Below, one piece after another: positions 1 through 23,862 of a stretch of 64,000 nt of DNA. Below the pieces are notes generated by a model. That model made no database searches, had not been told where the DNA came from, and was given only the letters and a program-made list of their open reading frames with translations. Within the stretch, counting starts at the first letter, position 1. Each line of letters opens with the position of its first letter. Source of the stretch: Candidatus Limnocylindria bacterium (GTDB lineage: Bacteria > Patescibacteriota > Saccharimonadia > Saccharimonadales > JAGQNK01); assembly GCA_035489815.1 (NCBI GenBank), contig DATHJH010000032.1, forward strand, positions 32,301 through 96,300. Direction: 5' to 3'. The position numbers and the translations under genes are program-made.

Positions 1-93
1 AGACATTTATAGCCTTGATGAGATTACAGAGAGAAGTCTATATAAGTTTGCAACTTACATTAACAAGCTGAACAAGGCGGATAAAAGCAAAAA

Positions 94-447
94 ATGAATG
101 ACTCTGACCACGGCAAGCGCAAAGACGCTGTGGTGGAGTTTTTAAGCGAACGTCCAACAAACCTTACATTGCGGACTATGGGCGCAAGACGTACCAAAGA
201 AGAGATGCAACACAATCTCGCTAGAAATCTGCTCTTAGGTTTCTTGACTCTATTTGTCGTCGCTATTATAGGCGCATATGTATTTGATCGAAGTTTTTGT
301 AGTAACCCCAATGTATGCGGCGATAACTTTGTAAACGTTAAGGTTGTTATTGAGACTATGTTGGATTTCGGCTCCCCATTCATAGGTATTATTATTGGAT
401 TTTTCTTTAGTGAAAAATTCTGGAATAATAGGAAAGAGAATGAGTAA
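94..447 (+). CDS. hypothetical small membrane protein (AT-rich edge region)
   Basis: 117-aa ORF with two hydrophobic segments (LLLGFLTLFVVAIIGAYVF, FGSPFIGIIIGFFF). It overlaps a 154-aa antisense ORF, so the coding strand is uncertain. No recognisable motif. Confidence 0.3.
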   Translation: MNDSDHGKRKDAVVEFLSERPTNLTLRTMGARRTKEEMQHNLARNLLLGFLTLFVVAIIGAYVFDRSFCSNPNVCGDNFVNVKVVIETMLDFGSPFIGIIIGFFFSEKFWNNRKENE

Positions 448-907
448 AAAACTAAACAAATCTGCCTCCCAGTCCGTTCCAAAAGAACCGAGCCCAACCG
501 GCATTGCCCGGTAGTTATACTCATTAACCAAAGAGCCGACGGGCTGTTGGCTACTCACCCCTAATCATTAATGACAATAGCCAACAATGTACTGAGTTTT
601 GTAATTTTCCTGTAGACGTGTTCGTTTACGTCAGAATAGCTCATCGGCGGATACTCAAAGACTGATGTTTCTAGGGCTTTTTGTTCACAGTCATTTTTCG
701 ATTGCTTACTACAAACACCCAGGCACCGGCACCGGTAAGTGCGATTATTAATAGCCACGTCACAAGTTTGTTCATCACTGCCATATGGATAACACTGCCT
801 ACTTGCTCGGAGGGGATACTCGCGTCATCCAGGACCTTTGTTCTTGGTGTGGAACCGGGACTCTGCTGTAGATTTATAGCTCGTAACGTCCGGCGTCATA
901 CTGTAAT

Positions 908-1921
908 ATGAAGCTTATGAAGAAGACTGCTGCTGTGCAGGCTAAAAAACTTGGTTCTCGTAAGCTTTTACTTGTCATTGTCATGGGTGTAATCGTGGTC
1001 ATTTGCGGGGCTGGATTTGGATACTCCAGGGTTCAAAATCGCAGCAGGGATTTACAGGCAAGCGACGTAAACCAGGACGGCACCATTGACATACTGGATG
1101 AAGCAGCAGAAATCGAAACAGCCCAGGAAACCCAGGATCAGCCTGAGGACGCTCCCGTTCAACCTGCACCAGGTGTTGAGGCACAAATTTATGACCTGAA
1201 GCTTATAGGCTTCTATCTCCATGACCATGCTTTAATCGGGGGAACGTATATACCCGATGGCGCTCCAAGCACCAGCACGGATTTTGAAATTTTCTCCAAA
1301 GGCATAGATCTAGGCACCTGTTCTGTTGTGCAGGACATCACCCACGACTACCCGGATAACAAAAAGCAAAAGATCACGCTCCAGTCAGTGGCTGCCCAAA
1401 AGGTCGTGCTGTATGACGGTGAAAACACCGTTACCGTTACCTGTCCCCAGCCAGGCGGGGACATTGTAAAGTCCATGAAGGTGCGGATGATGGATCTCAA
1501 GCCCGAACTGTGCCGGGATTTTTCATTCAGCGAGTCAGCCGTTACAGCCACGACGGTTGACGAACTAAAGAGCGGTGTTGCCGGCACCTGGTCAGGCTGC
1601 GTCACAACGCCTTGGCGACCCAAATACCATGTCGCCATCGTATTCAATAGCGACGGCACTTATTCGACCGCGTCAAATGAAGTGCTGGATGGGTACAGAA
1701 CCCCGGTGCTGTACTATGGCCTTGATGGTACCGATCCGAATAAAAAGTATTCGCTGGCCGCACTGCCCGACGGTACCTTTGGCGGCGACATTACCATCAC
1801 ATTTGGTGGCACAAGTGTTCAGAACCAGCTGAAAAACGTAAAGCTCATGTCAGACAAATTGTCCTTTGAATTTTTACATAGAAATCGGTACGGGCCGGTT
1901 AAGTTTGAACTGAGTCGTTGA
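908..1921 (+). CDS. hypothetical membrane-anchored exported protein with one EF-hand/dockerin-like Ca-binding loop
   Basis: 337-aa ORF. N-terminal basic stretch plus TM (LLLVIVMGVIVVICGAGFG), a DVNQDGTIDILD loop, an acidic linker, then a beta-rich domain. Confidence 0.6.
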   Translation: MKLMKKTAAVQAKKLGSRKLLLVIVMGVIVVICGAGFGYSRVQNRSRDLQASDVNQDGTIDILDEAAEIETAQETQDQPEDAPVQPAPGVEAQIYDLKLIGFYLHDHALIGGTYIPDGAPSTSTDFEIFSKGIDLGTCSVVQDITHDYPDNKKQKITLQSVAAQKVVLYDGENTVTVTCPQPGGDIVKSMKVRMMDLKPELCRDFSFSESAVTATTVDELKSGVAGTWSGCVTTPWRPKYHVAIVFNSDGTYSTASNEVLDGYRTPVLYYGLDGTDPNKKYSLAALPDGTFGGDITITFGGTSVQNQLKNVKLMSDKLSFEFLHRNRYGPVKFELSR

Positions 1922-1927
1922 CCAGGT

Positions 1928-3445
1928 CTAATGGACGACTGTCCACCTAAGGACTGTCTGAACCCTATGGTTCACTGACTGCACTGTGGGGTTTTGCCAG
2001 CGCCAGGTGTCCTCGGCCCGAATCAGCCAGCCGGCGGTGCCGCCTCCCCACACATACGTCAGAGCGAATGCCAGCAACAGGCAGGCTTTTAGGTGCCAGG
2101 CAAGCCTCATGAATCGCCTGTCAGCGATTGTCCAGCTAACCGCTTGAAGCATCACAACAAACACAATGATAAGGATAGGGAGCGTATATCGGGCCTGGAT
2201 AGCCTCGGCTTTCCACAGCCTGAGGTAAGAAAGGTAGTTGAAGAGCCACAGAATAGCCAGATACATCCCGGAAATACTTACCCCAAATCTTAAGTACGGC
2301 TGCCGCCAGAGCCGCTTCCACTGCAGCACCAACGCGGTCAAGCCCGTCACCAGCGCCAGATAGCCCACGGTCAACGGCAACGGCAACAGAGATTTAAGCT
2401 CGATCGGACCGAACGGTTCGAGGTCCGACACCACTCGCGTAGGGGTATGCATAAATATGGCGTAAAAACCGCGCATCATCCGGCTGAACCAATACTGGGA
2501 AAAGCTGAAGGGATTCCCGTAAGGTGCCTCTGGCGGCCGGTTCTGCACGTTTAAAACCTTATCCCGGTACCACGGCCCAAAATCCTCGCACAGTGAACGG
2601 GGCTGCACAACCTCACAAGACGGCCGGATTGACCCATACTGCACAACGTTGCCCCCGTAGCGTTCCGCGAACAGCCCGCCAACCACACCAAGCCCCAGAA
2701 GGATGAGTGCGAACGACAAGTCTTTGGGCGTCCTGCGCCAAGCCTTGCGGCAAACCAAAAGTAGCTTGCCCCGATTCCGCCGCCATATCACAATAGCCGC
2801 ATAGGCCAGTACTATGCCCGCCAGCGGCAAAAAAGTCTGCTTGATCAAAAGCGCTGTCATGCCCGTCAACACCAACAGCAAGCTGCGTTTCAGGAAGTCT
2901 TTGCGGCCTGTAATGAGTTCAGTAGCCTGGAGCAAGAAGACCGGCGTCAGCAGGAGCATCAGGTTGTCGTAACTCACATGCGCAGCCAAAAACGGCACAA
3001 TCGGCGTGGACACAAACGCCAGCAACGCCGCATGCGTCAGCCGCCGGGACACACCCCATCGAAGCAGCAGTTTTCTAAAGAGTATAAGAGCAACCGCCAC
3101 GAACACCACGTTCAGCAGGCGGGTCGCAACAATCAGTACCGCCTGATTGTCGGTAAAGATGTCAAAGAATCTGTACGGGAAGCTCATCAGGTAGTGATAC
3201 AGGAAGGACGGTTCGCGGGTCACGTCCCCCAGGACTCCCGTCCCTGCTGGCTGCTGGGCAATAACCGGCAACCACTGCCGGGCATACAACTGAATAACCC
3301 CCACGTGCACGAACTCGTCAAAAGGCAGCGGGTAGATGGCCGTGCAGGCCAGCCAGACGGATTGCACAACAAACAACAGAACAGTAGCTACAAAAAACTT
3401 GGTGCTGGCAAGCAGGTTGTGTATTCTCAGGGCAAGTTTTTCCAT
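1928..3445 (-). CDS. polytopic membrane protein, GT-C fold (PMT/ArnT-like) glycosyltransferase candidate, paralog 1
   Basis: 505 aa with more than 10 hydrophobic helices. Shares the motifs FLYHYLMSFPY and VSYDNL with the ORF at 19047-20465. Confidence 0.6.
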   Translation of the reverse strand: MEKLALRIHNLLASTKFFVATVLLFVVQSVWLACTAIYPLPFDEFVHVGVIQLYARQWLPVIAQQPAGTGVLGDVTREPSFLYHYLMSFPYRFFDIFTDNQAVLIVATRLLNVVFVAVALILFRKLLLRWGVSRRLTHAALLAFVSTPIVPFLAAHVSYDNLMLLLTPVFLLQATELITGRKDFLKRSLLLVLTGMTALLIKQTFLPLAGIVLAYAAIVIWRRNRGKLLLVCRKAWRRTPKDLSFALILLGLGVVGGLFAERYGGNVVQYGSIRPSCEVVQPRSLCEDFGPWYRDKVLNVQNRPPEAPYGNPFSFSQYWFSRMMRGFYAIFMHTPTRVVSDLEPFGPIELKSLLPLPLTVGYLALVTGLTALVLQWKRLWRQPYLRFGVSISGMYLAILWLFNYLSYLRLWKAEAIQARYTLPILIIVFVVMLQAVSWTIADRRFMRLAWHLKACLLLAFALTYVWGGGTAGWLIRAEDTWRWQNPTVQSVNHRVQTVLRWTVVH

Positions 3446-3477
3446 CTGTTACTCAACTATAACAGATGACTTTTTGG

Positions 3478-3580
3478 GCTGAGTGCTGCCGTGGCCCATC
3501 CTGAGGGGTCAGCAAGCGCCTCGGCGGCCAAAGGCCGTCCGTAAAAGCGCTCCTCAGGATGGGCCACGGCAGCACTCAGC
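3478..3580 (+). repeat. family-1 nested hairpin element, copy A (subtype 1a)
   Basis: Perfect 29-nt arms at 3478-3506 and 3552-3580 enclose the core GGTCAGCAAGCGCCTCGGCGGCCAAAGGCCGTCCGTAAAAGCGCT. Confidence 0.9.
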
Positions 3581-3662: not shown

Positions 3663-5018
3663 ATGTCAAAAGATTCACTGGCGGAAATATTTAAAGCATA
3701 TGACATCCGCGGCAAGGTCGGATCGCAGCTAACACCGGAAACAGTGGAGCGCATTGGTGCCGTATTCGGCGACTGGTTGCCTACAGAAGGCGTGGTAGCG
3801 GTGGGACATGACATGCGCCCGGACTCTGCCGAACTGGCACAGGCGCTTATCAAGGGCATTACAGTAACTGGCCGGGATGTTATGGATGTTGGCCAGGTGA
3901 CAAGTGACATGAGCTATTTTGCCGTTGGCAAATACAACCTGGCCGGGGCTGCCATGGTCACCGCCAGCCACAACCCGGGTGCCGACAACGGGATAAAACT
4001 CTACCGGGATCAGGTTATCGCTGTGGGCTTGGATGCCGGGTTAGACCAGATCCGCGACAGGGTACTTACAGATTACGCGCCAAAAACCGCCGCACAGCCC
4101 GGTCAAGTCACGGCAAAGGATATTACAGAGGACTGGCTTGCCCATGTTATGAGCTTTGTGCCGGATCCGGCCAAACTCAAGCCGTACAAAATGGCCGTGG
4201 ACGCCGGCAACGGTATGGCAGGTAAAATATTCCCGGAACTTGAACCCTATGTCCCGTTTGAAGTGACCGAACTGTACTTTGACCTGGACGGCACCTTCCC
4301 TAATCATGAGGCCAATCCGCAAAAGCCGGAAAATATGCAGGACCTCATCAAGACAGTCCAGGAAAACAAGCTGGACTTTGGCATTGCCTTTGATGGTGAC
4401 GGTGACCGCGCCGGGTTTGTGGATGACAAGGGCCGGATTGTGTCCGGAAGTGACCTGATCAGCATTGTTGCCCGGGAGTATTTGAAGAAGTACCCTGGGG
4501 CAGAAATAGTGCACGAGGTCCGCACCAGCCGGGCCACCCAGGAACTCGTCCGCGAATGGGGCGGCACACCCTTTAGAACCAAAGCCGGACGGGTCAGCAT
4601 CGGCACTGTCATGCGCGAACACGACGCCCCATTTGGCGGCGAGACAACCGGACACCTGTTTTTTAAGGAAAACTATTACGCCGACTCTGGCCTGATTGGC
4701 GCGATGATGGTCATCGTCGCCCTGCAGGCAGCTGGTAAAAAATTGTCGCAACTGGTGGACGAATACCACAGATATGCCACTATGCCAGAGGTAAATTTTG
4801 AAGTAGCTGATAAGGACGGAGCGTTAAAACGCCTGGCTCAGGCCTTTTCCAACGACACCCAGGATACCCTTGACGGGCTAACGGTGAATTTTGATGACGG
4901 TTGGTTTAATATCCGCGCCAGCAACACCGAACCAGTCATGCGCCTCAACGCCGAGGCCGGGACCCAGGCCCGCCTCGACGAGCTCGTTGCAAAAGTCACA
5001 CACCTAATCCAGGACTAG
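3663..5018 (+). CDS. manB: phosphomannomutase/phosphoglucomutase (alpha-D-phosphohexomutase family)
   Basis: 451 aa. FKAYDIRG N-terminus, catalytic TASHNPGADNG loop, metal-binding FDGDGDR. AAGGAG RBS upstream. Confidence 0.85.
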   Translation: MSKDSLAEIFKAYDIRGKVGSQLTPETVERIGAVFGDWLPTEGVVAVGHDMRPDSAELAQALIKGITVTGRDVMDVGQVTSDMSYFAVGKYNLAGAAMVTASHNPGADNGIKLYRDQVIAVGLDAGLDQIRDRVLTDYAPKTAAQPGQVTAKDITEDWLAHVMSFVPDPAKLKPYKMAVDAGNGMAGKIFPELEPYVPFEVTELYFDLDGTFPNHEANPQKPENMQDLIKTVQENKLDFGIAFDGDGDRAGFVDDKGRIVSGSDLISIVAREYLKKYPGAEIVHEVRTSRATQELVREWGGTPFRTKAGRVSIGTVMREHDAPFGGETTGHLFFKENYYADSGLIGAMMVIVALQAAGKKLSQLVDEYHRYATMPEVNFEVADKDGALKRLAQAFSNDTQDTLDGLTVNFDDGWFNIRASNTEPVMRLNAEAGTQARLDELVAKVTHLIQD

Positions 5019-5037
5019 CGGGATATACTAAACACAT

Positions 5038-6045
5038 ATGAAGATGCTCATTACCGGCGGCGCGGGGTTCATTGGTGCGAACTTTGTCCACTATATCCGC
5101 CAGCACTACCCTGACTATCAGATAATCGTCGTCGATAAACTTAATCAACAGGGTAACTTAGAAAACCTGGCTGCCGTTCGCGATCAGATAGAGTTTCATG
5201 AGTTTGACCTCATCGAAGAAGCCAAGCTGGTGCTTATCTTTGAGCAAGGCCTGGATTATGTCGTCCACTTTGCAGCCGAAACCAACGTAGACCGATCTAT
5301 CGAAGATCCGGACAATTTTGTGAACAGCAATGTGCTTGCCACCAACATCTTGTTGCGCCTCAGCCGTGACCACAAAGTCAAACGCTTCCACCACGTTTCT
5401 ACAGATGAGGTCTTTGGCAGCCTGGAACTCGGATCAGATGATAAGTTCAACGAGCACACCTCTTACGACCCGCGCAGTCCCTACTCTGCTACCAAAGCCG
5501 CCAGCGATCACCTGGTACGGTCCTACTTCCATACCTACGACCTGGATGTCACTATCAGTAACTGCTCCAACAACTACGGCCCTTACCAGGTACCAGAGAA
5601 CATTGTGCCGGTCTTTACCCTCATGGGCCTGCAGGACAAGCCGCTGACTATTTATGGCGACGGCAAAAGCATCCGGGATTACCTGTTTGTGCTGGACCAC
5701 TGCCGGGCCATTGACCTGATTCTGCGCAAAGGCCGTGCCGGTGAAACATACTGCGTCGGCGGTGGCCAGGAACAAAATGGCGTAGAAATCGCCGATGGTG
5801 TGCTCTCCATCCTGGATAAATCCCAGGAGCTGAAAAAGTTCGTGACCGACCGGCCCGGTCACGACCGCCGCTACGCCATTGACTACACCAAAATCAGCCG
5901 CGAACTGGGCTACCAACCAAGCGTGACATTTGAGGAAGGCCTGCGCCAAACCATCGACTGGTACCAGGCCAATACCGAGTGGTGGCAGCCCTACATGGAA
6001 AAGTTTTATGTACCGAAGTTCATGCAAAAGGACGTGGAACAATGA
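5038..6045 (+). CDS. rfbB: dTDP-glucose 4,6-dehydratase
   Basis: 335 aa. GGAGFIGANF Rossmann motif, YSATKAASDHL (YxxxK), full-length SDR-extended architecture. Confidence 0.9.
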   Translation: MKMLITGGAGFIGANFVHYIRQHYPDYQIIVVDKLNQQGNLENLAAVRDQIEFHEFDLIEEAKLVLIFEQGLDYVVHFAAETNVDRSIEDPDNFVNSNVLATNILLRLSRDHKVKRFHHVSTDEVFGSLELGSDDKFNEHTSYDPRSPYSATKAASDHLVRSYFHTYDLDVTISNCSNNYGPYQVPENIVPVFTLMGLQDKPLTIYGDGKSIRDYLFVLDHCRAIDLILRKGRAGETYCVGGGQEQNGVEIADGVLSILDKSQELKKFVTDRPGHDRRYAIDYTKISRELGYQPSVTFEEGLRQTIDWYQANTEWWQPYMEKFYVPKFMQKDVEQ

Positions 6046-6050
6046 GAGGC

Positions 6051-6159
6051 CCGGAACGGCTCACCCTTACGAATTCGTCAGGCTAAAGCTAACGCCATGG
6101 GCTGACCGAAGGTCACCCATAAAGTGGCCTAGAGAATTCGTAAGGGTGAGCCGTTCCGG
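6051..6159 (+). repeat. family-1 nested hairpin element, copy B (subtype 1b)
   Basis: Perfect 26-nt arms at 6051-6076 and 6134-6159. Core is GTCAGGCTAAAGCTAACGCCATGGGCTGACCGAAGGTCACCCATAAAGTGGCCTAGA. Confidence 0.9.
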
Positions 6160-6169
6160 CGGGAAAAAT

Positions 6170-7282
6170 ATGAATATAACCTTCTTTGGAACATACGACA
6201 CCAGCAACACCCCCCGGGTTCAAGCCCTCATTGACGGTATGCGCGCCCATGACCACAAGGTGACAGAATGCAACGCACCGCTCAAGGTCAACACCGCCTC
6301 CCGGGTAGCCATCATGCAACAGCCTTGGCGCTTGCCACTGCTGGGTGGGCACATCCTCCGCTGCTGGGTTCGTCTGATCGGAAAATCGCGACACCTTCCA
6401 CCAACTGATTTGGTGATAGTGGGACACTTGGGGCAGTTCGATATTCAGCTGGCGCATCTGCTGTTTAGAAAAAAACCTATTGCTCTAGACTACATGATCT
6501 CCGGCACCGAAACGGCCAACGACCGCGGGGCTAAAGGCGGACTCAAGACAAAAGTCCTCGGCTGGCTGGACCAGGCAGCCCTCAAAAAATCCGCCATTAT
6601 CATAGTAGATACTGAAGAACACCGCCTAGACCTACCCGGGCACCACCGATCCAAGGGTGTAGTCGTAAACGTCGGCGCCCCGCCCTCCTGGTTTGAGGCG
6701 GGCGAGGCAGAGGCCAAACGCAAAGTAACCAAACCCATTAGCATCGCCTTTTTCGGCAACTACATCCCCCTGCAGGGCGCCCCAATCATTGCCGAGGCCA
6801 CCCGCTCTATGCAATCTCCCGTCACCATAACCATGGTCGGCCCCCACGGCCAGGACTTTGCCAAAGCCCAGGCCGCCGCTCGGCCTGCCAAAGGCCCAGC
6901 CACCATCAAGTGGGTCGACCATTGGGTGCCCATAGACGAACTGCCCGCACTTATGGCTCAGCACGATGTGTGCCTGGGTGTCTTTGGTACCAGCCCCAAA
7001 ACTTATAAAGTCGTACCTAACAAAGTCTACCAGTGCGCCGCTGCCGGCGGTGCCATTGTGACCTCCGACACGCCGTCACAGCGGCGGGTCTTTGGCGCGT
7101 CCGCCATCTACACACCCCCCGGCGACGCCCACGCCCTGGCCGACGCCCTGGACAAACTGGCCAACAACCCCAAAGAAGTGCAACGCCTCCGCGCAGCCGC
7201 TTTCACCCTCGCCAAAAAATCCTTCCGCCCCGAACAAATCATCCGCCCCTTCCTCAAAAAACTCGAAGAACAAGGTCTATGA
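6170..7282 (+). CDS. glycosyltransferase (GT-B, GT1/GT4-like)
   Basis: The ORF-track frame opens at 5930, but that extension overlaps rfbB and the hairpin element. The ATG at 6170 (MNITFFGTYD) is the first start after the element. The C-terminal half is GT-B-like. Confidence 0.6.
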   Translation: MNITFFGTYDTSNTPRVQALIDGMRAHDHKVTECNAPLKVNTASRVAIMQQPWRLPLLGGHILRCWVRLIGKSRHLPPTDLVIVGHLGQFDIQLAHLLFRKKPIALDYMISGTETANDRGAKGGLKTKVLGWLDQAALKKSAIIIVDTEEHRLDLPGHHRSKGVVVNVGAPPSWFEAGEAEAKRKVTKPISIAFFGNYIPLQGAPIIAEATRSMQSPVTITMVGPHGQDFAKAQAAARPAKGPATIKWVDHWVPIDELPALMAQHDVCLGVFGTSPKTYKVVPNKVYQCAAAGGAIVTSDTPSQRRVFGASAIYTPPGDAHALADALDKLANNPKEVQRLRAAAFTLAKKSFRPEQIIRPFLKKLEEQGL

Positions 7283-7818
7283 GACAACTCGATCAACAAA
7301 AGTTCTGCGGCTGGTGTGGCGGCATGGTAACTTACCCTTCAAAATGGCAATCAGTCTGTAGCACATGCGGATACAAGCAATACCAAAACCCTTTACCATG
7401 CAGCAGCGCTCTTATTATCTGTGGCGATGAAGTACTAATACTCCAGCGGTCTATAGAACCAGGAAAGGGGAAGTTTGACCTCCCGGGCGGTTTTATGGAC
7501 ATGACAGACAAGTCCATAGAGGCAGCCGCTTACCGAGAACTGCACGAAGAATTGGGAATAAAACAGCGTATGATAACCCAGGTTACTTATTTTGGATCGG
7601 GCATACAGCCATACGAGTGGCAAGGAACAGAGCTACTCACAGCGCCCTGTTACTTTACCTGCCACATAACCACCAAGGACCGCGCCCGGCTTGTCGTTGA
7701 CCCCAAAGAGGGCTCTCAGGTACGCTGGGTAAGTCGGGCCGACGTACCGACCGTAGACTTTGCCTTTGATTTGGATAAGGAAATGCTTACCAGTTATTTT
7801 AGTAATAAAACACCTTAG
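7279..7818 (+). CDS. NUDIX hydrolase with N-terminal zinc ribbon
   Basis: Nudix box GGFMDMTDKSIEAAAYRELHEELGI. CGWCGG...CSTCG Cys4 ribbon. The start ATG overlaps the upstream stop (ATGA). Confidence 0.8.
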   Translation: MRQLDQQKFCGWCGGMVTYPSKWQSVCSTCGYKQYQNPLPCSSALIICGDEVLILQRSIEPGKGKFDLPGGFMDMTDKSIEAAAYRELHEELGIKQRMITQVTYFGSGIQPYEWQGTELLTAPCYFTCHITTKDRARLVVDPKEGSQVRWVSRADVPTVDFAFDLDKEMLTSYFSNKTP

Positions 7819-7830
7819 GAGGGTTATAGC

Positions 7831-8406
7831 GTGCAGCTTATAAAGACGGACATCGACGGAGTATTACAGGCTCAGCCAGACATACACGGTGACGAGCGCG
7901 GTTTTTTCATAGAAACCTACCGGCGGCAGTGGTTTCCAAATGGACGGGAAATGATCCAGGGCAACCGCGGCGACCGTAAAGCTGGCTCCATTGTGGGCTT
8001 TCACTATCACCTGCACCAAGCAGATTACTGGTACGTTCCCTTTGGCTCCGCCCGCGTCATCCTGCATGATTTTCGCAAGGACTCACCAACGTTTGGCGTG
8101 ACAGCCACCTTTGACCTTGGCGCAGACCTGAAAAGTCCGGATGATCCAAAAAAGTTCAATCACAATGGCCTCTACATCCCGCCCGGGGTAGCCCATGGCT
8201 TTGCTGCATTGTCCGACATGACTATCACCTACCTCGTGGACGGCTACTATAATCCAGCAGATGAACTAGGCATTGCCTGGAACGATCCCGATGTTGGAGC
8301 CGATTGGGGATTGAAAGATCCCGTCGCATCTGACCGCGACAAAAAGAATCCATTGCGCAAAGATATTCCGATTGAGCTAAGACCGCACTTTAAACTCCGG
8401 GGGTAA
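7831..8406 (+). CDS. rfbC: dTDP-4-dehydrorhamnose 3,5-epimerase
   Basis: 191 aa, GTG start. GDERGFFIETY, FHYH...QADYWYV, cupin-type RmlC pattern. Confidence 0.85.
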   Translation: MQLIKTDIDGVLQAQPDIHGDERGFFIETYRRQWFPNGREMIQGNRGDRKAGSIVGFHYHLHQADYWYVPFGSARVILHDFRKDSPTFGVTATFDLGADLKSPDDPKKFNHNGLYIPPGVAHGFAALSDMTITYLVDGYYNPADELGIAWNDPDVGADWGLKDPVASDRDKKNPLRKDIPIELRPHFKLRG

Positions 8407-8409
8407 ATC

Positions 8410-9270
8410 ATGGATGATTCAAAGTTTTTTATTGTCGGGGCAAACGGACAACTGGGTACTGCGCTGCGGGCTCAGTATCCGCAGGCTCAGTTTGCTGACA
8501 TTGATGAAATGGATATTACTGATCGCGCGTCGGTCATGGGCTACGACTGGTCCGGCGTTACCCATATCCTCAACGCCGCTGCCTACACGAACGTGGACGG
8601 GGCAGAAACCGCCGAAGGCCGGATGGCCGCCTGGAAGGTCAACGCCGCAGCCGTAGGCTACCTGGCAGAAGTTGCGCGGCAGCATGACATCACCCTGGTG
8701 CACATTTCTTCGGATTACGTTTTTGACGGCACCAAACATCCACATACCGAACAGGAGGACTTTGCGCCACTATCCGTCTACGGCGCCAGCAAGGCGGCGG
8801 GCGACCTGCTAGTTGCTTCTTTGCCAAAGCACTACATCCTGCGCACCAGCTGGGTCATTGGCGAGGGCAACAACTTTGTCCGTACCATGTTGGGCCTGGG
8901 TGCAAAAGGAGTGTCGCCAACAGTCGTAGCAGACCAAGTTGGCCGCCTCACCTTCACGAGCGAGCTTGTCCGGGCAATCGACCATCTCCTTTCAACTAGC
9001 GCAGCACATGGCACATATAATGTCAGTAATAGTGGTGAACCAGCCAGTTGGGCAGACATCGCCCGCCACATATTTGAAATTGCTGGACACAAAGACCTCA
9101 CCGTTACCGACACCACCACGGCCGAATACTTTGCCGGCAAAGAAAACATCGCCGCCCGCCCCCTGCACAGCACCTTTGACCTCACTAAACTTACTGCCAC
9201 TGGCTTTGAAAGCCGCGGTTGGTATGATGAATTAAGGGAATACGTCAAAAAGGAGCTTTCCACGCAATGA
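8410..9270 (+). CDS. rfbD: dTDP-4-dehydrorhamnose reductase
   Basis: 286 aa. VGANGQLG, YGASKAAGD (YxxxK). Confidence 0.85.
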   Translation: MDDSKFFIVGANGQLGTALRAQYPQAQFADIDEMDITDRASVMGYDWSGVTHILNAAAYTNVDGAETAEGRMAAWKVNAAAVGYLAEVARQHDITLVHISSDYVFDGTKHPHTEQEDFAPLSVYGASKAAGDLLVASLPKHYILRTSWVIGEGNNFVRTMLGLGAKGVSPTVVADQVGRLTFTSELVRAIDHLLSTSAAHGTYNVSNSGEPASWADIARHIFEIAGHKDLTVTDTTTAEYFAGKENIAARPLHSTFDLTKLTATGFESRGWYDELREYVKKELSTQ

Positions 9271-10133
9271 AGGGAATTATTTTAGCCGGTGGATCGGGCA
9301 CACGCCTGTACCCCATCACCCACGGCATCTGCAAGCAACTGATGCCGATCTACGACAAGCCAATGATCTACTATCCCTTGTCCACGCTGATGCTGGCTGG
9401 GATTCGGGACATCTTGATCATTACCACCCCGCACGACCAGGAACGGTTCAAACAGCTGCTGGGCGATGGTTCACGCGTGGGCTGTCACTTTGAGTACGTC
9501 ATTCAGGATCAGCCGCGCGGATTAGCCGACGCATTTATAGTTGGCGCTGACTTCATTGGGAATGACAAAGTCTGCCTGATCCTTGGCGACAACATATTTT
9601 ATGGCTCCGCCTTTGGTGAACAACTCAAAGAAAACACCGATCCCGACGGCGGCATCATCTACGCCTACCATACGTCCACTCCCGAAAGACTGGGTGTGGT
9701 GGAATTCGACAAAGACATGAATGCAATTTCAATTGAAGAAAAGCCAGAAAAACCCAAATCCAACTATGGCATCCCAGGCCTATACTTCTACGACAATGAC
9801 GCTGTAGAGATCGCCAGACAAGCAAAACCAAGTGCCCGGGGCGAACTGGAAATCACCGAAATCCATAACGGCTACCTCCGCCAGAACAAACTAAAAGTCA
9901 GCATTATGGACCGCGGTACGGCATGGATAGACCCGGGTAATTTTGATGACGTCCTAAAAGCCTCACAGTTTGTCCAGATTATCGAGGAAAGACAGGGTCA
10001 AAAAATCGGTTGCATAGAGGAGATCGCCTGGGAAGAGGGATACATTACCACCGCCCAGCTACAAGCCCTGGCCGAACCCCTCAAAAAGAGCGGCTACGGA
10101 CAGTATCTGCAGTCGCTGGTACAAGAAGCTTAG
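9267..10133 (+). CDS. rfbA: glucose-1-phosphate thymidylyltransferase
   Basis: 288 aa. MKGIILAGGSGTRLYPIT, with RmlA pattern throughout. ATGA overlap with rfbD. Confidence 0.95.
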   Translation: MKGIILAGGSGTRLYPITHGICKQLMPIYDKPMIYYPLSTLMLAGIRDILIITTPHDQERFKQLLGDGSRVGCHFEYVIQDQPRGLADAFIVGADFIGNDKVCLILGDNIFYGSAFGEQLKENTDPDGGIIYAYHTSTPERLGVVEFDKDMNAISIEEKPEKPKSNYGIPGLYFYDNDAVEIARQAKPSARGELEITEIHNGYLRQNKLKVSIMDRGTAWIDPGNFDDVLKASQFVQIIEERQGQKIGCIEEIAWEEGYITTAQLQALAEPLKKSGYGQYLQSLVQEA

Positions 10134-10157
10134 GCCCGCCTCCAAACGATCTCGGAC

Positions 10158-10263
10158 CCCATCACAAATACCCTCTTATTCCGTCAGGGTCAGCAAGCGC
10201 CTCCGAGGGCCCATGGCCCGAGGTAAAAGCGCCCTAGAGGAATAAGAGGGTATTTGTGATGGG
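10158..10263 (+). repeat. family-1 nested hairpin element, copy C (subtype 1a)
   Basis: Perfect 25-nt arms at 10158-10182 and 10239-10263. Core is GTCAGGGTCAGCAAGCGCCTCCGAGGGCCCATGGCCCGAGGTAAAAGCGCCCTAGA. Confidence 0.9.
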
Positions 10264-10289
10264 CCGATGCCTAGTAATAGTCATAACCG

Positions 10290-11258
10290 TTATTTATCGA
10301 AGCGTTGGCGCTTGGCGGCTTCCAGAATCTTTTCCTGATTATTCAGCAGCCGGTCCAGCATGTCCGCTACCAGGCCAAGCGCCCAAACCACCAGCGCCAA
10401 GGTCGTGAGATAGAGGCCAAGGGCCCCGACGGCAATGTAAGGGGTAATGCGATCGGTGCGTATCCAATGCACAAAGGTAAACCCGCCAAGCAGCAGACCC
10501 GGGATAATGAGTATAACCCCCAGATTCCCGAAAAACTTCAAGGGTGCATAGTCGCGGTACGCCCGGAGTATATTCAGCGCACTGCCAAACAGGAATTGCC
10601 AAAAACTTTTCACCACCCGGGACTTTCGGCCCTCGTAGTACTTCACATGGATAGGCACAGCCACGATATTCATCTTTTTGACGGCCAGCACCTGAAAGGA
10701 CTCCTGCGTATAGGTGTAGGTACTGTTGATGTTTATGGCCAGCATGGCCTTTTTGGTGTAGGCCCTAAAGCCGCAGGTGACGTCATAAAACCGCTCGCCT
10801 GACAGATTGCCCACAATCCACGCCCCGAGCCGGTTAGCCCAGTACTTGCCGCCCGGCATGCCTGCCGGTTTGCGGCGCTGCCCGGTATCAGGGTCAGTGA
10901 AGCGATCGGCGGCTACAAAGTCTGCGCCGTCTTGCAGGATTGGTTTAAGCAGCGTCGGGATGTCCTCTGGTGCAAACTGCAAATCACCGTCAATATTTAC
11001 GGCAATATCCGCATCCATGGACAGCGCCGTTTCTATGGCTTGCTCAAACCTATAGGCCAGCCGCTTTTGCTTGACGCCCTCTATGATCTTGGTGGCACCG
11101 GCCCGGCGGGCGGCGTCTGCCGTGCTGTCGGTGCTGCCGTCGCTGACCACCAGCGTTTCAATCTTATCCACGCCAGGTATCTTTTTGGGAATCCTCTTCA
11201 GGAGTTCACCAATAGTCTCTGCCTCGTCCTTACAGATAGAAAATATTATTAGCTTCAT
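10290..11258 (-). CDS. GT2 polyprenyl-phosphate glycosyltransferase (GtrB/CsbB/DPM1-like) with C-terminal TM helices
   Basis: GT-A N-terminal domain (LIIFSICKDE, VVSDGSTD, NIDGDLQF) followed by two C-terminal TM helices. The maximal ORF reaches 11300. The ATG at 11258 (MKLIIF) is preferred. Confidence 0.7.
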   Translation of the reverse strand: MKLIIFSICKDEAETIGELLKRIPKKIPGVDKIETLVVSDGSTDSTADAARRAGATKIIEGVKQKRLAYRFEQAIETALSMDADIAVNIDGDLQFAPEDIPTLLKPILQDGADFVAADRFTDPDTGQRRKPAGMPGGKYWANRLGAWIVGNLSGERFYDVTCGFRAYTKKAMLAININSTYTYTQESFQVLAVKKMNIVAVPIHVKYYEGRKSRVVKSFWQFLFGSALNILRAYRDYAPLKFFGNLGVILIIPGLLLGGFTFVHWIRTDRITPYIAVGALGLYLTTLALVVWALGLVADMLDRLLNNQEKILEAAKRQRFDK

Positions 11259-11320
11259 GAGTGGTGTATTTTTCTCCCTATTGCCACATTTTACTGTCAA
11301 AGTGTTTTATAATCTAGTAA

Positions 11321-12595
11321 ATGAAGATAGCTGTGATTGGATTAGGGTACGTTGGCCTGCCCCTGGCGCTCCTGGCAGAAGAAAAAGGCTTTGACGTCAT
11401 TGGTATTGATCTGGACAAAAACAAACTAACCAGACTGAGTAAACGCCAGCCGATCATTGATGACACGATCGCAAACAAACAGCTGGAAAAAACAAACATA
11501 CGCTTTTCTGACGACTTTTCGCTGCTACAGAACGTAGATATAGCAATTGTCTGCGTACCTACCCCTGTTGATGAAGCCAAAAACCCTGATCTGGGCCCCG
11601 TAAAAGGTGCCTCTGTCAGCGTGGCAAAACAGTTAAAGCCCGGCAGCTTGCTGGTGATCGAATCAACCATTAACCCAGGAGTCTGCGACGAAGTCGTTAT
11701 CCCAATCATAGAAAAAGAAACCGACCACGTCATAGGCAAGTCCCTGTACATAGCTCACTGCCCGGAGCGCATCAATCCCGGAGACCCCAAGTGGCATGTC
11801 GGCAACATCAACAGAGTACTCGGTGCCGATTCCGACAAAGCCCTGGATATGGCTTACAAATTTTATGACCAGCTCGTAGACGCCAAGGTCAAAAAGATGG
11901 GCAGCATCAAGGAAGCCGAGGCCTGCAAAGTGGTTGAAAACTCATTCCGGGACATCAACATAGCCTTTGTAAATGAGCTGGCTATGTCTTTTGACAAGCT
12001 GGGTATCAATGTAGTCAACGTCATAGACGGTGCCGCCACCAAGCCCTTTGCTTTTATGGCTCACTACCCTGGTATTGGCGTCGGCGGACACTGCATACCG
12101 GTAGACCCCTATTACCTGATTGAATATGCACGCAGTAATGGGTTTGAGCACAAGTTCCTGTCGCTGGCCCGCAGCATCAACGAATCCATGCCTGTCTATG
12201 CCATTGATCAGTTGGAACAAGCACTCATCCAAAAAAGCGGCCGGACACTTGATGGTGCATCCGTAACAGTGCTGGGATTGTCCTATAAGCCCAATGTGGC
12301 AGATGATCGTGAAAGTCCAGCCTATGTAGTCATAAGGGCTCTAAAGAAGCGCGGCGCACGGGTAACCGGGTATGACCCGTACCTCCTGGAAAAGTCAGAC
12401 GCCAAATCTCTGCCGGAAGCGCTCCAAGACAAAGACGCTGTCATACTAGTAACCAGCCATCAGGAATTCAAGGACCTTGCACCAGAAGCCTTCGCGGGCG
12501 TATCTGTACTGCTTGACGGCCGGAATGACCTCATCAAACACAAGGCCGCGCTTAATGAGCTAGGCGTAGTCTATCTAGGCCTTGGCCTGAACTAA
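11321..12595 (+). CDS. nucleotide-sugar dehydrogenase (UDP-glucose/GDP-mannose dehydrogenase family; WecC/WbpA-like)
   Basis: 424 aa. MKIAVIGLGYVGLPLA, catalytic GVGGHCIPVDP. Confidence 0.85.
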   Translation: MKIAVIGLGYVGLPLALLAEEKGFDVIGIDLDKNKLTRLSKRQPIIDDTIANKQLEKTNIRFSDDFSLLQNVDIAIVCVPTPVDEAKNPDLGPVKGASVSVAKQLKPGSLLVIESTINPGVCDEVVIPIIEKETDHVIGKSLYIAHCPERINPGDPKWHVGNINRVLGADSDKALDMAYKFYDQLVDAKVKKMGSIKEAEACKVVENSFRDINIAFVNELAMSFDKLGINVVNVIDGAATKPFAFMAHYPGIGVGGHCIPVDPYYLIEYARSNGFEHKFLSLARSINESMPVYAIDQLEQALIQKSGRTLDGASVTVLGLSYKPNVADDRESPAYVVIRALKKRGARVTGYDPYLLEKSDAKSLPEALQDKDAVILVTSHQEFKDLAPEAFAGVSVLLDGRNDLIKHKAALNELGVVYLGLGLN

Positions 12596-12600
12596 AGCCC

Positions 12601-13956
12601 ATGGAAAAAACAATTACCATCATTGGCGCAGGCTATGTAGGGTTGTCCACCGCAGCCCTGCTTTCTAACTGTGGGTACCAGGTCTACCTGATAGATATCA
12701 ACCAGGAGCGTTTGGACACCATTGCCAGCGGCAAATCATTTTTCTTTGAGGAAGGTATAGACCCGTTGATTGCAGCAGGCATCAGCGCCGGTTTGCTCAT
12801 TCCCACGGCAGACTACAAAACGGGGGTGTCAAAAAGTTCCATAGTATTTTCCTGTGTGGGCACGCCCGACAACCCTGACGGCAGCTCTAATCTGACCTAC
12901 GTATTCTCTGCGGCCAAAGAAGCCGCCTCGTACCTGCAGCCCGGTTCTGTCTATGTCCAGAAAAGCACCGTTCCCGTTGGCACTGGCGGCAGGGTAAGCC
13001 AGGAGTTTCAGAAGGCAGGCACAAAGGTAGCTTATGTGTCTAACCCTGAATTCCTGCGCGAAGGAACGGCCATCAGCGACACTCTGTGGTTTGACAGGAT
13101 CATATGCGGGGGCTCCGACGAAGAAGCCGTCCAGGCCGTGTTTACAATCTATAGATCGCTTGAGGAGTGCCGCGAGAAGATTGCGAACCTGACAAAACTA
13201 AAAACACCGGACGTTCAGCTGCCCGGTTCTTACATCGCAACCACGCTTGAGAGCGCAGAGCTCATCAAGGTCACTGCCAATGCCTTTTTGGCGCTAAAGA
13301 TTTCGTTCGCCAACTCCATTGCTAAACTGTCTGACCAGGTTGGCGCGGATATAACTGAAGTTATGGACGCCGTTGGCCAGGACAATAGAATTGGCCGGGC
13401 CTTTTTAAATGCCGGCCGGGGCTACGGCGGCGGCTGTTTTCCCAAGGATATGAGCGGGCTGATTGATGCCATGCACGAACACAGTGCCGACCCGCAGATC
13501 CTCACCGCCGCCCAGGAGGTGAACGCCTCTATGCCCGGCTATATTGTGAACAAAGTCCAGACCGCTATGGGCGACCTGCACGGCAAGAAGATTGCTGTGC
13601 TGGGTCTGGCTTTCAAGGCAGGCACCAGCGACGCCAGAAGGTCGCAGGGTGTGCGTATGGCAAACATCCTATCCAAATCAGAGGCCGTTGTTCGGGTCTA
13701 TGACCCGGAAGCCAGCCATGAAGCAGCTGAGGACCTGCGGCCAAACGTCGTTGTCTGCCAGGACCTCCATGCAGCCGTCAAAGGGGCAGATGCCGTGTTG
13801 GTAGCAACGGAATGGCCAGAGCTCATCCAAATGGATCTGAAGCGGCTGGTCAAGGACGCGGCTAAGCCTTGTATACTTGTTGATTGCATGAACAGATTCT
13901 CATCAGCCCAAGCCGCCGAAGCTGGGTTACAATACATAGGAGTCGGAAAAAGATGA
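12601..13956 (+). CDS. ugd: UDP-glucose 6-dehydrogenase
   Basis: 451 aa. IIGAGYVGLSTA, GYGGGCFPKD catalytic Cys motif. Confidence 0.8.
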   Translation: MEKTITIIGAGYVGLSTAALLSNCGYQVYLIDINQERLDTIASGKSFFFEEGIDPLIAAGISAGLLIPTADYKTGVSKSSIVFSCVGTPDNPDGSSNLTYVFSAAKEAASYLQPGSVYVQKSTVPVGTGGRVSQEFQKAGTKVAYVSNPEFLREGTAISDTLWFDRIICGGSDEEAVQAVFTIYRSLEECREKIANLTKLKTPDVQLPGSYIATTLESAELIKVTANAFLALKISFANSIAKLSDQVGADITEVMDAVGQDNRIGRAFLNAGRGYGGGCFPKDMSGLIDAMHEHSADPQILTAAQEVNASMPGYIVNKVQTAMGDLHGKKIAVLGLAFKAGTSDARRSQGVRMANILSKSEAVVRVYDPEASHEAAEDLRPNVVVCQDLHAAVKGADAVLVATEWPELIQMDLKRLVKDAAKPCILVDCMNRFSSAQAAEAGLQYIGVGKR

Positions 13957-15725: not shown

Positions 15726-15772
15726 CAGTCAAGGCTGTTAAAGCTTACGCTTTTATGCTATAATTATATTTG

Positions 15773-16318
15773 ATGGTACAAAATAAAAACTACAAGAAAC
15801 CTATACTTATCATACTTGCCGCCGTTTTGCTGGTAAGCGGCGGGGTTTTCGCATACAGAGCCTACGGCAGGGATTCAGGCCGGGACGATTGGGTGGATGG
15901 CGTAAACTACGGTCCGCCTACCGAGGAAGAAAAAGCCTCTGGTGACAAGCAGAAAGAAACCACGGACGCAGAGGAGGAGCAACAGAACGCTCCAGAACCT
16001 CCGGACCAAAATGACCCCCAGAAAAAAGCCGTGACCGTCATCATCACCGATGCCGATCAATATGATGCTATAATTGAAGTCCGATCCTTTATCTCCGACC
16101 ACTACCAAGACGGCACTTGTACGATCACCATCAAAAAAGGCAGCCAAACAGTTACCAAAAAAACGCCTGCCTACCGCGATGCCTCTACCACCATCTGCAC
16201 CAACCCGCTCATCAAACGTTCCGAGTTCCCGAGCGCCGGGGACTGGCAAGTTACAGTAGCCTACGCTTCCAAAGACGCTGCCGGCACATCGGACGCACAA
16301 ACCATTAAAATCAAGTAG
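15773..16318 (+). CDS. hypothetical membrane-anchored exported protein
   Basis: About 181 aa. N-terminal TM (PILIILAAVLLVSGGVFAY), an acidic linker, then a small beta domain. Confidence 0.6.
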   Translation: MVQNKNYKKPILIILAAVLLVSGGVFAYRAYGRDSGRDDWVDGVNYGPPTEEEKASGDKQKETTDAEEEQQNAPEPPDQNDPQKKAVTVIITDADQYDAIIEVRSFISDHYQDGTCTITIKKGSQTVTKKTPAYRDASTTICTNPLIKRSEFPSAGDWQVTVAYASKDAAGTSDAQTIKIK

Positions 16319-16321
16319 CTC

Positions 16322-18899: not shown

Positions 18900-19006
18900 G
18901 GCCGAGTCAGCTACTTTCGTTCCTCTAGGGCGCTTTATGGGCGATCCTTACGGATCGGCCCATGGCGCTTGCTTACCCGGACGGAACGAAAATAACTGGC
19001 TCGGCC
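18900..19006 (-). repeat. family-1 nested hairpin element, copy F (subtype 1b, core on minus strand)
   Basis: 24-nt arms at 18900-18923 and 18983-19006 with 21 WC pairs. The minus-strand core is GTCCGGGTAAGCAAGCGCCATGGGCCGATCCGTAAGGATCGCCCATAAAGCGCCCTAGA. Confidence 0.9.
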
Positions 19007-19046: not shown

Positions 19047-20465
19047 ATGCTTGCTAAAACAATAATGAAGGGTCTAAATAAAAAGGGCCGCCAGGTCCAT
19101 GACCTTATAGTTGCCCTCATATCATCTAAGGTGTTTTTGGTTGGTTCTTTTGTCTGGTTTGCAGTCCAGGGCCTGTTCTTTGCCATAACCATCAGGGTGG
19201 GCTTGCCGCCGGACGAAAACTACCACCTCTCACTCATAAAGCTGTTTTCAGAACACAGTCCGTCGCCTTTCCTCGCCGATCAAGATGGCTATTTGGCACT
19301 GGGCGAGGTTGTCCACACGCCGTTTTTCCTCTACCACTACCTGATGAGTTTCCCCTATCTCCTCGTAGGCGATTCTGAGTGGGGATACGTTGTGCTCCGG
19401 CTACTCAATCTAGCGCTAGCGCTTGGTTCTATGTACCTGGTCTACCGAATTGCCGGCGAGCTCAAGGTGTCCAAACTGGTTCGTAACCTAAGCATATTCA
19501 TGCTGGTCAATACTTTGATGTTTGTATTTTTGTCTGCGGCGGTCAGCTACGACAATTTATTTATTTTCTTGTCCCTGGCAACTATTCTGTTTCTTCTGAG
19601 GCTGTTAAAGGGAGTTACCGCTTATCGGTTCCTGCTCTTTGGAGTGGCGATGGCTGCCGGTTCTTTGATAAAGGTCAACTTCTTGCCAGTGGCTTTTATT
19701 TGTCTGGCTGTTTTGATTTTCCGGTACCGCAATCGCTTTAGTACTATATGGCCGGCGCTGTCCCACAGCTTTATGGCCAGAAAACGGCTCAACAGTATAC
19801 TTGGCATCGTACTTGGCGTCCTGACCATATTGGTTATACAAAGGTACGGCTACAACGTCCTCAAATACCACACATACGCACCAAGCTGTCCTCAAGTGCA
19901 AACCTTGCAGGAATGTCGCCGTAGCCCGCTGTTTGTCAGAAACGAACACATTAGTCGTACTCCGCTTCGTGCCACTAAAGATCCTTTTGAATATGTCTAC
20001 GACTGGGTGCCGCTTATTCAGGCTAGAACCTACGGAATTTTTGCGCACAGGGAGCTCCCGGCGCTGAAACTCATACTGGCCTGGTCTCAGATACTTATAG
20101 TGCTTGGCGTCGTAGCAATTGCCCGGGTTTGGCGGCGCGAAGACAAGCTTCTGACGCTTACCCTGGGTATCAGCCTGTTTTATGTGGCCATTGTACTGCT
20201 GGAAAACTACGGCGCCTATACGTCTTCGGGCCGGTTTGGGTTTGCGCTCCATGGACGCTATTTGTTTGCTGTCTTGCCGCTCCTGTACGTCCTTGGCAAC
20301 CACTACACCCTCAAACTTCTGCGTGACAACTATACAAAAACGCTATTTCTAGCCGTCACTATTGCCGTATTTTTTGCGGCCAGCCTGCCTACCTTTATAT
20401 ATAAATCATCAGAGCTCTGGTATGCGGACCGGTTCAAGCAAACCAGGACCTACTTACTGCCGTAA
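19047..20465 (+). CDS. polytopic membrane protein, GT-C fold glycosyltransferase candidate, paralog 2
   Basis: 472 aa with more than 10 TM helices. Shares FLYHYLMSFPY and VSYDNL with the ORF at 1928-3445. Confidence 0.6.
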   Translation: MLAKTIMKGLNKKGRQVHDLIVALISSKVFLVGSFVWFAVQGLFFAITIRVGLPPDENYHLSLIKLFSEHSPSPFLADQDGYLALGEVVHTPFFLYHYLMSFPYLLVGDSEWGYVVLRLLNLALALGSMYLVYRIAGELKVSKLVRNLSIFMLVNTLMFVFLSAAVSYDNLFIFLSLATILFLLRLLKGVTAYRFLLFGVAMAAGSLIKVNFLPVAFICLAVLIFRYRNRFSTIWPALSHSFMARKRLNSILGIVLGVLTILVIQRYGYNVLKYHTYAPSCPQVQTLQECRRSPLFVRNEHISRTPLRATKDPFEYVYDWVPLIQARTYGIFAHRELPALKLILAWSQILIVLGVVAIARVWRREDKLLTLTLGISLFYVAIVLLENYGAYTSSGRFGFALHGRYLFAVLPLLYVLGNHYTLKLLRDNYTKTLFLAVTIAVFFAASLPTFIYKSSELWYADRFKQTRTYLLP

Positions 20466-21925: not shown

Positions 21926-22095
21926 GCTGTGGAGTAGGATAGCATAAACCTGTGCCACTGATGGCACGTGGATCAGAGCGCACACAGGTAGGCAGCGCCA
22001 TGAGTCAGCCTAGGACTGCTCATAGCGCCAAACCACTGCTGATGGGTCAGTGATAGCCTTTATAGTCCAGGTATAAATATAGTAGAGTACCTGTA

Positions 22096-23418: not shown

Positions 23419-23451
23419 CGTAAGCTTCTAGAGTGTCAGGACAACTTACTC

Positions 23452-23601: not shown

Positions 23602-23612
23602 GATAGATGTAC

Positions 23613-23849: not shown

Positions 23850-23862
23850 GTATCACCCTTTC

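Follow-up and report, generated by a model that had tools for sequence, protein, structure and literature searches.

Which kind of element is a long hairpin that almost fills the spacer between two bacterial genes, and what keeps its two strands in register while their sequence changes? The question is raised by positions 6051 to 6159 of the window, the whole stretch of 64,000 nucleotides analysed here (contig DATHJH010000032.1, positions 32,301 to 96,300 of the forward strand, assembly GCA_035489815.1), where a 109-nt hairpin, called copy B, lies on the plus strand between the genes of a dTDP-glucose 4,6-dehydratase and a glycosyltransferase. Copy B is a member of an interspersed, non-coding, hairpin-forming repeat family of Saccharibacteria, approximately 105 bases in length, whose fold is conserved through covariation. 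The family is apparently undescribed, as a search of the literature on repeats, hairpins and miniature inverted-repeat transposable elements (MITEs) of Saccharibacteria and Patescibacteria found no description of the hairpin element. With genomes of approximately 1 Mb, Saccharibacteria can afford few repeats, and a conserved 100-nt hairpin that occurs six times in 64 kb is a notable investment for them.

Copy B and the covariation of its inner hairpin

Copy B, which is of the subtype called 1b, starts 5 nt past the stop codon of the dehydratase open reading frame (ORF; its end is at 6045). Its far end is 10 nt short of the glycosyltransferase ATG at 6170, and it takes up nearly the whole spacer between these co-directional genes. 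Its RNA fold is computed at -73.5 kcal/mol (z = -12.85, with 0 of 200 shuffles as stable), and the DNA parameters give -43.5 kcal/mol (z = -11.45 in the shuffle comparison). The 5' outer arm (6051 to 6076, plus strand) forms 26 perfect Watson-Crick pairs with the 3' outer arm (6134 to 6159, plus strand); its distal half is unique to the locus, and its proximal 12 nt or so follow the degenerate pyrimidine-rich pattern of the family. In the 5' strand of the core base (6077 to 6084), G6077 is bulged, T6078 and C6079 pair with A6133 and G6132, AGGC (6080 to 6083) pairs with GCCT (6127 to 6130), and T6084 lies opposite G6126, a U.G opposition that is invariant in 22 of 22 family copies. It is followed by the 5' bulge AAAGCTA (6085 to 6091), for which the family consensus is (A)AGCWA with an invariant AGC, and by a strand (6092 to 6096) in which A6092 and C6093 pair with T6125 and G6124 ahead of the invariant GCC (6094 to 6096). 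The inner hairpin (6097 to 6120) is made up of ATGGG (6097 to 6101), the bulged C6102, TGACC (6103 to 6107) and the loop GAA (6108 to 6110), with GGTCA (6111 to 6115) and CCCAT (6116 to 6120) on its 3' side (6111 to 6120). The 3' strand of the core (6121 to 6133) contains the invariant AAA loop strand (6121 to 6123), G6124, T6125 and G6126, continued at 6127 to 6133 by GCCT, the bulged A6131, G6132 and A6133; all of these parts are given in the plus sense.

The first-pass annotation of this DNA had compared the inner hairpin of B with those of two further window copies, F and M, and had described compensatory changes in both helices, GTAA loops in two of the copies and a C-C mismatch retained between the helices, a pattern that it took to point to selection on a folded single strand and not on primary sequence. 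The compensatory differences are as it described them: the lower helix is ATGGG/CCCAT in B and ATAGG/CCTAT in M, and the upper helix is TGACC/GGTCA in B, TGGCC/GGCCA in M and CGATCC/GGATCG in F. The GTAA loops are likewise seen in M and F, the loop of B being GAA. The C-C mismatch is absent, as each of the three transcriptions had been given one extra C on its 3' side; the inner hairpin of B reads ATGGG, C, TGACC, GAA, GGTCA, CCCAT and is 24 nt long, not 25. What stands between the two helices is a single bulge on the 5' strand, which faces no base on the other strand; it is found in 18 of 18 subtype-1b copies, as C in 17 of them and as GC in the other.

The covariation holds in a larger alignment, which comprises 22 copies, 6 from the window and 16 from outside, and in which the inner hairpin is never broken. 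Standard pairs occupy 95.6% of the pair cells; shuffles give 75.2%, with none of 500 reaching the observed value, and sliding the partners gives 34-47%. Of the 29 pairs, 22 have changed on both sides. For the inner hairpin the paired fraction is 98.5%, with a compensatory change in eight of nine pairs. The 18 subtype-1b hairpins were also parsed from their fixed flanks inward, free of any alignment; all 90 pairs of their lower helices are Watson-Crick, and their upper helix is fully paired with one G.U. The same helices are returned by RNAalifold on a plain MAFFT alignment, and 16 of the 17 top column pairs of an unsupervised mutual-information scan are predicted base pairs. Base pairs supported by covariation are a general feature of cis-acting structured RNAs, but template switching can mimic them in inverted repeats. 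The idea of selection on a folded strand has thus come through in part: fold conservation with covariation stands, in 22 copies from a largely unbiased sample, while the C-C feature does not exist, the double changes are weaker evidence in inverted repeats than they look, and the folded strand may be DNA or RNA.

The hairpin also affects gene calling. A mechanically called ORF at 5930 to 7282, with a TTG start, reads through copy B, whereas a separate gene prediction for this sequence in a public assembly starts the glycosyltransferase at the equivalent of ATG 6170, exactly 240 nt downstream. The 240-nt N-terminal extension, already called false in the first-pass annotation, is therefore indeed false, and elements of this family cause false ORF extensions such as the one at 5930 to 6169.

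Copies, core and stems of the family

Inverted-repeat and pattern searches of the window gave six solid copies. Besides B, these are copy A (3478 to 3580, plus strand; subtype 1a), which lies in a divergent intergenic region and has a symmetrised core base without the G and A bulges; copy C (10158 to 10263, plus strand; subtype 1a), which lies between convergent genes and has the G and A bulges but an inner hairpin without the C bulge; copy F (18900 to 19006, minus strand; subtype 1b), which is antisense to both of its plus-strand neighbours; a sixth, unlabelled copy (31682 to 31782, minus strand; subtype 1a), whose base is symmetrised to CCTAGG/CCTAGG; and copy M (50012 to 50117, minus strand; subtype 1b), between the convergent recF and a 526-aa gene. 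A possible decayed core without outer arms (21987 to 22029, plus strand), in a divergent intergenic region, matches the covariance model at 20.8 bits (E about 0.001). The sixth copy is directly downstream of a small conserved minus-strand ORF of approximately 47 aa (31795 to 31963), which is below the 90-aa ORF list and has 74% nucleotide identity to L021 10694-10875; the type-1a copy beside this ORF is present in the window and absent in L021.

Outside the window, public collections were scanned for the two conserved strands on either side of the inner hairpin, the sole fixed parts of a search pattern that left the hairpin itself unconstrained; since intact flanking strands were needed, decayed copies are under-sampled. 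Among species-representative genomes, four real copies were found, all in records titled Candidatus Saccharibacteria or Saccharimonadales, and 12 further copies come from soil and rhizosphere metagenomes; the remaining matches of the scan are chance ones without a hairpin. Collections of viral contigs, phages and plasmids contained no family match. Similarly, Rfam 15 gave no match for the whole window at gathering thresholds, and with E up to 10 copies B and C returned only generic noise of the miRNA-precursor or long-hairpin kind, far below threshold. All solid copies are intergenic, lie near the ends of genes and measure approximately 100-125 nt.

Read in the GTCAGG sense, the copies have an outer stem of 24-33 bp followed by an invariant C:G pair, a bulged G, a U:A and a C:G pair, and a bulged A. 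The core helix AGGS/SCCU comes next and ends with the U opposite G; its fourth pair occurs as G-C (16 copies) or C-G (3 copies). Above the U opposite G are the 5' bulge of 6-7 nt and a helix of 2 bp in which the R:Y pair is never broken, 18 copies having G-C and 4 having A-U. An internal loop of GCC opposite AAA then leads to the inner hairpin. In the 18 copies of subtype 1b, B, F and M among them, this hairpin has a 5-bp lower helix AYRGG/CCYRU, the one-base C bulge, an upper helix of 5-6 bp and a non-conserved terminal loop of 3-4 nt, while the four subtype-1a copies are without the C bulge. Approximately 20 unpaired nucleotides are invariant in the family, and the mean identity between copies is 0.81 in the core. 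In the arms, it is 0.41 at positions 3-12 from the core, where the 5' strand is pyrimidine-rich, and 0.26 at positions 13-22, against 0.27 when shuffled. Judged from these identities, the homologous unit is approximately 82 nt long and consists of the asymmetric core of 58-60 nt together with some 12 bp of loosely conserved proximal stem; beyond it, each copy has a further 12-20 bp of perfect stem that is specific to its locus.

Helices shaped at the RNA level are normally rich in G.U pairs, and on the transcribed strand only. The outer arms of this family comprise 479 Watson-Crick pairs with seven mismatches of the G.U type and seven of the A.C type, so that G.U makes up approximately 1.4% of the arms, with no excess on the sense strand over the antisense strand. 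Both strands also fold equally well, the sense strand being lower in 13 of 21 comparisons with a mean difference of -0.8 kcal/mol.

The placement of the copies shows no preference for the direction of transcription either. In tandem gene pairs, B and the copy at 31682 are sense, F and a copy in another organism (L018) are antisense, and the tandem contexts overall give an orientation of approximately three sense to two antisense. C and M are between convergent genes, and A and several metagenomic copies are between divergent ones. The direction of replication is likewise ignored, with orientations +, +, +, -, - on one side of the origin and - on the other; a replication-strand polarity is ruled out by these mixed orientations on one replichore of a window that contains the origin.

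Orthologous sites show how the parts of the element evolve. Contig L030, which is syntenic with window 4869 to 13818 (nucleotide identity approximately 81%), also has a copy of the element precisely at the B site. The stems of the two copies are approximately 52% identical, each of them perfect or nearly so, and the four-fold-degenerate-site identities of the flanking genes are 0.52 and 0.62; the outer stem thus diverges at about the level of synonymous sites. The core of B is nearer to the cores of L018 (0.95) and M (0.88) than to that of its orthologue in L030 (0.77), which suggests core replacement or conversion. Another pair of orthologous loci, L001 and L012, with 80% identity, has the flank and the proximal arms in common, and the core is inverted relative to the gene, although the two cores are each among the other's closest (0.90). 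In copies A and 31682, the G and A bulges are lost and the base helices have become perfect palindromes.

Template switching between the arms of an inverted repeat during replication is known to homogenise the arms, can expand them and inverts the spacer (PMC8604942, PMC13100816, PMC8794818), and it can create paired double substitutions in one event (PMC8794818, PMC8604942). The orientation that is mixed with respect to both transcription and replication, the near-pure Watson-Crick arms, the fast-changing stems, the inverted core and the symmetrised copies are all as template switching predicts, and we infer that it shapes the stems here. Paired double changes are therefore weaker evidence of selection in this family than they look. 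The better evidence is in the parts that homogenisation would erase: the three single-base bulges, the AGC bulge, the GCC/AAA loop and the U.G opposition are kept across organisms whose stems are unrelated, and they persist, with the core identity of 0.81, against the symmetrising pressure. Two forces thus act on one hairpin, a mutational process under which the stem is perfect and the centre can flip, and selection on unpaired bases. For RNA discovery based on covariation, this is a caution, as paired double changes in inverted repeats are by themselves no proof of selection at the RNA level. The folded strand need not be RNA; the orientation is independent of transcription and one orthologous core is inverted, and the orientation-blind, almost purely Watson-Crick data mean that RNA-level selection is not the obvious reading.

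The copies differ among related genomes from six per 64 kb to none, and they mark sites of gain or loss between close relatives. The closest relative (L035-L037, L043; approximately 40 kb syntenic) has kept only the copy at the B site, with A, C and M absent; at the M site, its recF spacer is 66 nt long, against 196 nt in the window. Four further related genomes have no copy in approximately 96 kb. No empty site could be placed to the exact base, as the intergenic flanks of the closest relative have diverged too far, and three samples of the relative were identical over 6-18 kb, with no within-species polymorphism. Uninterrupted empty palindromes of the proximal-arm type were found in none of 34 loci. 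A type-1a copy in a metagenomic contig (L021 12687-12815) has a direct repeat of 9 nt on either side, CCTTGAGAG in the sense of the element, which arises once in 300 in the null and is the sole candidate target-site duplication of the 12 copies tested.

What the element may be

The reading that we favour, tentatively and at a little less than an even chance, is an interspersed element resembling MITEs or repetitive extragenic palindromes (REPs), with an asymmetric core that is recognised as a folded single strand and stems that are maintained by template switching. Switching from arm to arm would keep the stem perfect, may lengthen it, would occasionally invert the core and would symmetrise parts of it, as in A and 31682. 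The core would be kept because a protein reads the folded single strand, be it DNA or RNA, and the most likely reader would be a transposase or nuclease acting in trans, which spreads or converts the copies. Most copies would then be tolerated passengers of intergenic DNA, with possible side effects on their neighbours through a very stable hairpin between cistrons and through spurious ORF extensions. Should a partner protein be found, it would mark a new system, either a mobile element or an RNA-protein one, in a phylum that is uncultivated.

The likeness to known mobile repeats is a partial one. As in MITEs, the copies are short, non-coding, numerous and dispersed, and they are present or absent at orthologous sites (the B site being shared); where a MITE would have terminal inverted repeats common to its copies, the proximal 12 bp here share a degenerate pattern (0.41 against 0.27 shuffled) and the distal 10 bp are at the random level (0.26). 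The Correia elements of Neisseria (CREE/NEMIS) are MITEs that form transcribed hairpins and have well-conserved terminal inverted repeats and regular target duplications. The present family resembles them in its size of approximately 100 nt, its non-coding nature, its intergenic placement in either orientation, its long hairpin and its lineage-specific copy number, but its conserved part is central and asymmetric, and only some 12 bp of stem are loosely shared. REPs and REPINs (BIME) are built of 20-40-nt units with a conserved GTAG head, near-identical within a genome, and are served by the RAYT transposase. With these, the family would share the nature of a non-autonomous extragenic palindrome that is intergenic, changes in ways that preserve the hairpin and is read as a folded single strand; unlike them, it is without a GTAG head or near-identical copies and conserves a 58-nt asymmetric centre, and the Pfam matches of the window proteins include no RAYT-like gene. 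Integron attC sites conserve their outer R'' (RYYYAAC) and R' (GTTRRRY) boxes around a variable centre and form a cassette array next to intI. Like attC and the end hairpins of IS200/IS605, which are single-stranded DNA sites recognised by their structure and their extrahelical bases, the family has a sequence-variable hairpin, placed just after gene ends, whose recognition would rest on conserved bulged bases; unlike attC, it has unrelated outer ends and a conserved centre, with no boxes, cassette array or integrase in the window. The perfect, fast-changing stems, the inverted L001/L012 core and the symmetrised copies resemble template-switched inverted repeats (PMC8604942, PMC13100816, PMC8794818), but that literature describes a mutational process and leaves the conservation and the multiplication of a 58-nt asymmetric spacer unexplained. 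The TIGR/Tas systems, tandem stem-loop arrays with variable palindromic stems and loop spacers next to a Nop-domain gene (PMC12045711), were also considered and ruled out as the identity of the family, the copies here being dispersed and having a conserved centre.

Several observations weigh against a mobile element. The distal stem halves are unrelated between copies, unlike those of a classical MITE, and an extra assumption is therefore needed, either insertion into pre-existing palindromes or later growth of the stem. Target-site duplications beyond chance are missing in 11 of the 12 tested copies, the Pfam matches of approximately 40 window proteins include no transposase or other candidate partner, and a search of 380 kb of loci for an autonomous version, with split half-sites around an ORF, gave only scattered chance matches with two mismatches. 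The intact core at the B site in two lineages whose synonymous divergence is near saturation fits purifying selection by the host as well as it fits conversion, and the invariant U.G (22 of 22) hints that one particular strand matters. A further reading, which we regard as doubtful, is that the activity resides in the 58-nt core and that candidate-phyla-radiation bacteria have here an element of a kind not known before, either a structure-specific mobile module or a new class of protein-binding or catalytic RNA that long palindromes carry. A mobile module of this sort may land at long palindromes or build them, and flip inside them; under both versions, a partner protein would read the three single-base bulges and the AGC bulge.

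Among the rival explanations, a functional structured RNA module in intergenic transcripts is possible, though on balance unlikely. Its long duplex would be a substrate of RNase III or another double-strand-RNA activity, or a hairpin protecting a 3' or 5' end, and its core would bind an RNA-binding protein that directs the processing, stability or termination of neighbouring mRNAs. RNAs that bind a protein or ligand usually combine strong covariation with invariant unpaired nucleotides, of which there are approximately 20 here, the U.G is invariant in the GTC sense, the copies are intergenic near gene ends with B nearly filling a co-directional spacer, and the B-site copy is intact in two diverged lineages. 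All of this is opposed by the lack of preference among sense, antisense, convergent and divergent placement, the core inverted between orthologous loci, the rarity of G.U (approximately 1.4% of the arms, not commoner in the sense strand), the absence of a T-run after the hairpins, the copy number that falls from six per 64 kb to none in relatives and the missing Rfam match. Two specific forms of an RNA role do not fit: an intrinsic terminator, as there is no terminator-like site on A, B, C or F, the total of such sites equals that of shuffles and the flanks have no T run; and a fixed-orientation cis-acting RNA, given the mixed orientation, the seven G.U against seven A.C mismatches and the inverted orthologous core. 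The same indifference to transcription would suit a host site at the DNA level, where a chromosomal protein would bind the extruded cruciform or the single-stranded hairpin and serve, for instance, to organise the nucleoid, in recombination or repair, or in the uptake of DNA. The arms are symmetric and Watson-Crick so that both strands fold equally, the orientation is independent of the genes, and the bulges are conserved as in DNA hairpins that are recognised by proteins. This explanation is nevertheless improbable: the uneven density and the absence of three of the four examined window copies from the closest relative argue against a required chromosomal function, and the copies show no polarity relative to the origin, with no candidate protein found.

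Catalysis by the core, as a small self-cleaving ribozyme of a new type or another catalytic RNA that is closed by a very long P1-like stem and present in multiple copies as hammerhead and twister sometimes are, is very improbable. Variable, covarying helices around invariant junction or bulge nucleotides, a variable outer stem and the multi-copy state are features of small ribozymes such as hairpin and twister; however, no Rfam ribozyme model (hammerhead, twister, twister-sister, pistol, hatchet, hairpin and HDV-like) was matched even at E up to 10 with a 150-nt query, the polarity and loop requirements are unmet, the orientation to transcription is random, and RNAalifold pairs most of the GUC/AGA region, leaving two single-base bulges. 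A superficial likeness to loop A of the hairpin ribozyme (GUC opposite AGA) was dismissed for the opposite polarity of the two strands, and one to twister (the strings AAGC, GCC and AAA) was dismissed since the loop of the pseudoknot-forming hairpin is not conserved and there is no model match. The least probable explanation, with hardly a chance, is a functionless, decaying relic whose covariation comes from template-switch homogenisation alone. Template switching by itself can produce flawless stems and double changes of paired bases (PMC8794818, PMC8604942), the arms have diverged about as far as synonymous sites and some copies are symmetrised or decayed, but a relic would not account for the C bulge kept in 18 of 18 subtype-1b copies, for the G and A bulges, the AGC bulge and the GCC/AAA loop found in nearly all copies on unrelated stems, or for a core identity of 0.81 against 0.26 in the distal arms.

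Genome setting and other hairpins of the window

The metagenome-assembled genome (MAG) from which the window comes is labelled "Candidatus Limnocylindria" (Chloroflexota) by NCBI. The nearest homologues (P0001, P0121), the synteny with Saccharimonadales contigs and the gene content, including a secretion cluster of the PrgI/TraG type at 51-60 kb, place the window in Saccharibacteria, and the MAG is probably mis-binned or mislabelled. The window contains the chromosomal origin region (43349 to 49997), in which the cumulative GC skew has its minimum, near 45 kb (approximately 44-48 kb); the genes of this region are yidC (43349 to 44320, minus strand), rnpA (44423 to 44767, minus strand), dnaA (45416 to 46798, plus strand), dnaN (47136 to 48227, plus strand), a PIN-domain gene (48217 to 48645, minus strand) and recF (48936 to 49997, plus strand).

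Other hairpins of the window have perfect locus-specific outer arms and unrelated centres (16366 to 16468, 37165 to 37291, 42773 to 42853 and 60087 to 60206). Similar ones are found elsewhere (L001 5003-5100 and 5757-5872; L004 4690-4772 and 5329-5487), and these unrelated-centre hairpins are 80-160 nt long with outer arms of 17-45 bp. The hairpin at 16366 to 16468 folds at -80.7 kcal/mol on the minus strand and -63.1 kcal/mol on the plus strand and has many G.U pairs, with its flanking genes on the plus strand; that at 60087 to 60206 has a 17-bp stem closing three inner hairpins; and at the site of the one at 42773 to 42853, the related contig L002 has a type-1b element instead.

Two palindromes that are related to each other and have no spacer (24975 to 25022 and 25544 to 25597) flank the ORF at 25034 to 25549, a 171-aa gene with a PaaX_M or Cas2-like domain; the second has arms of 27 nt that are 100% complementary. 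The pair may serve as operator sites or delimit a small mobile unit. ORFs that are long (337-853 aa) and have no Pfam match (in 1 to 3445, 15770 to 18883 and 20450 to 24852) sit in a large surface-polysaccharide cluster with rml genes, several GT2 and GT4 glycosyltransferases, a Wzm/Wzt ABC transporter, a Wzy-like ligase and methyltransferases. Immediately before copy A, a 9-bp hairpin followed by ACTTTTTGGG (3443 to 3468) is terminator-like on the plus strand; it overlaps the start, at 3445, of a gene on the minus strand.

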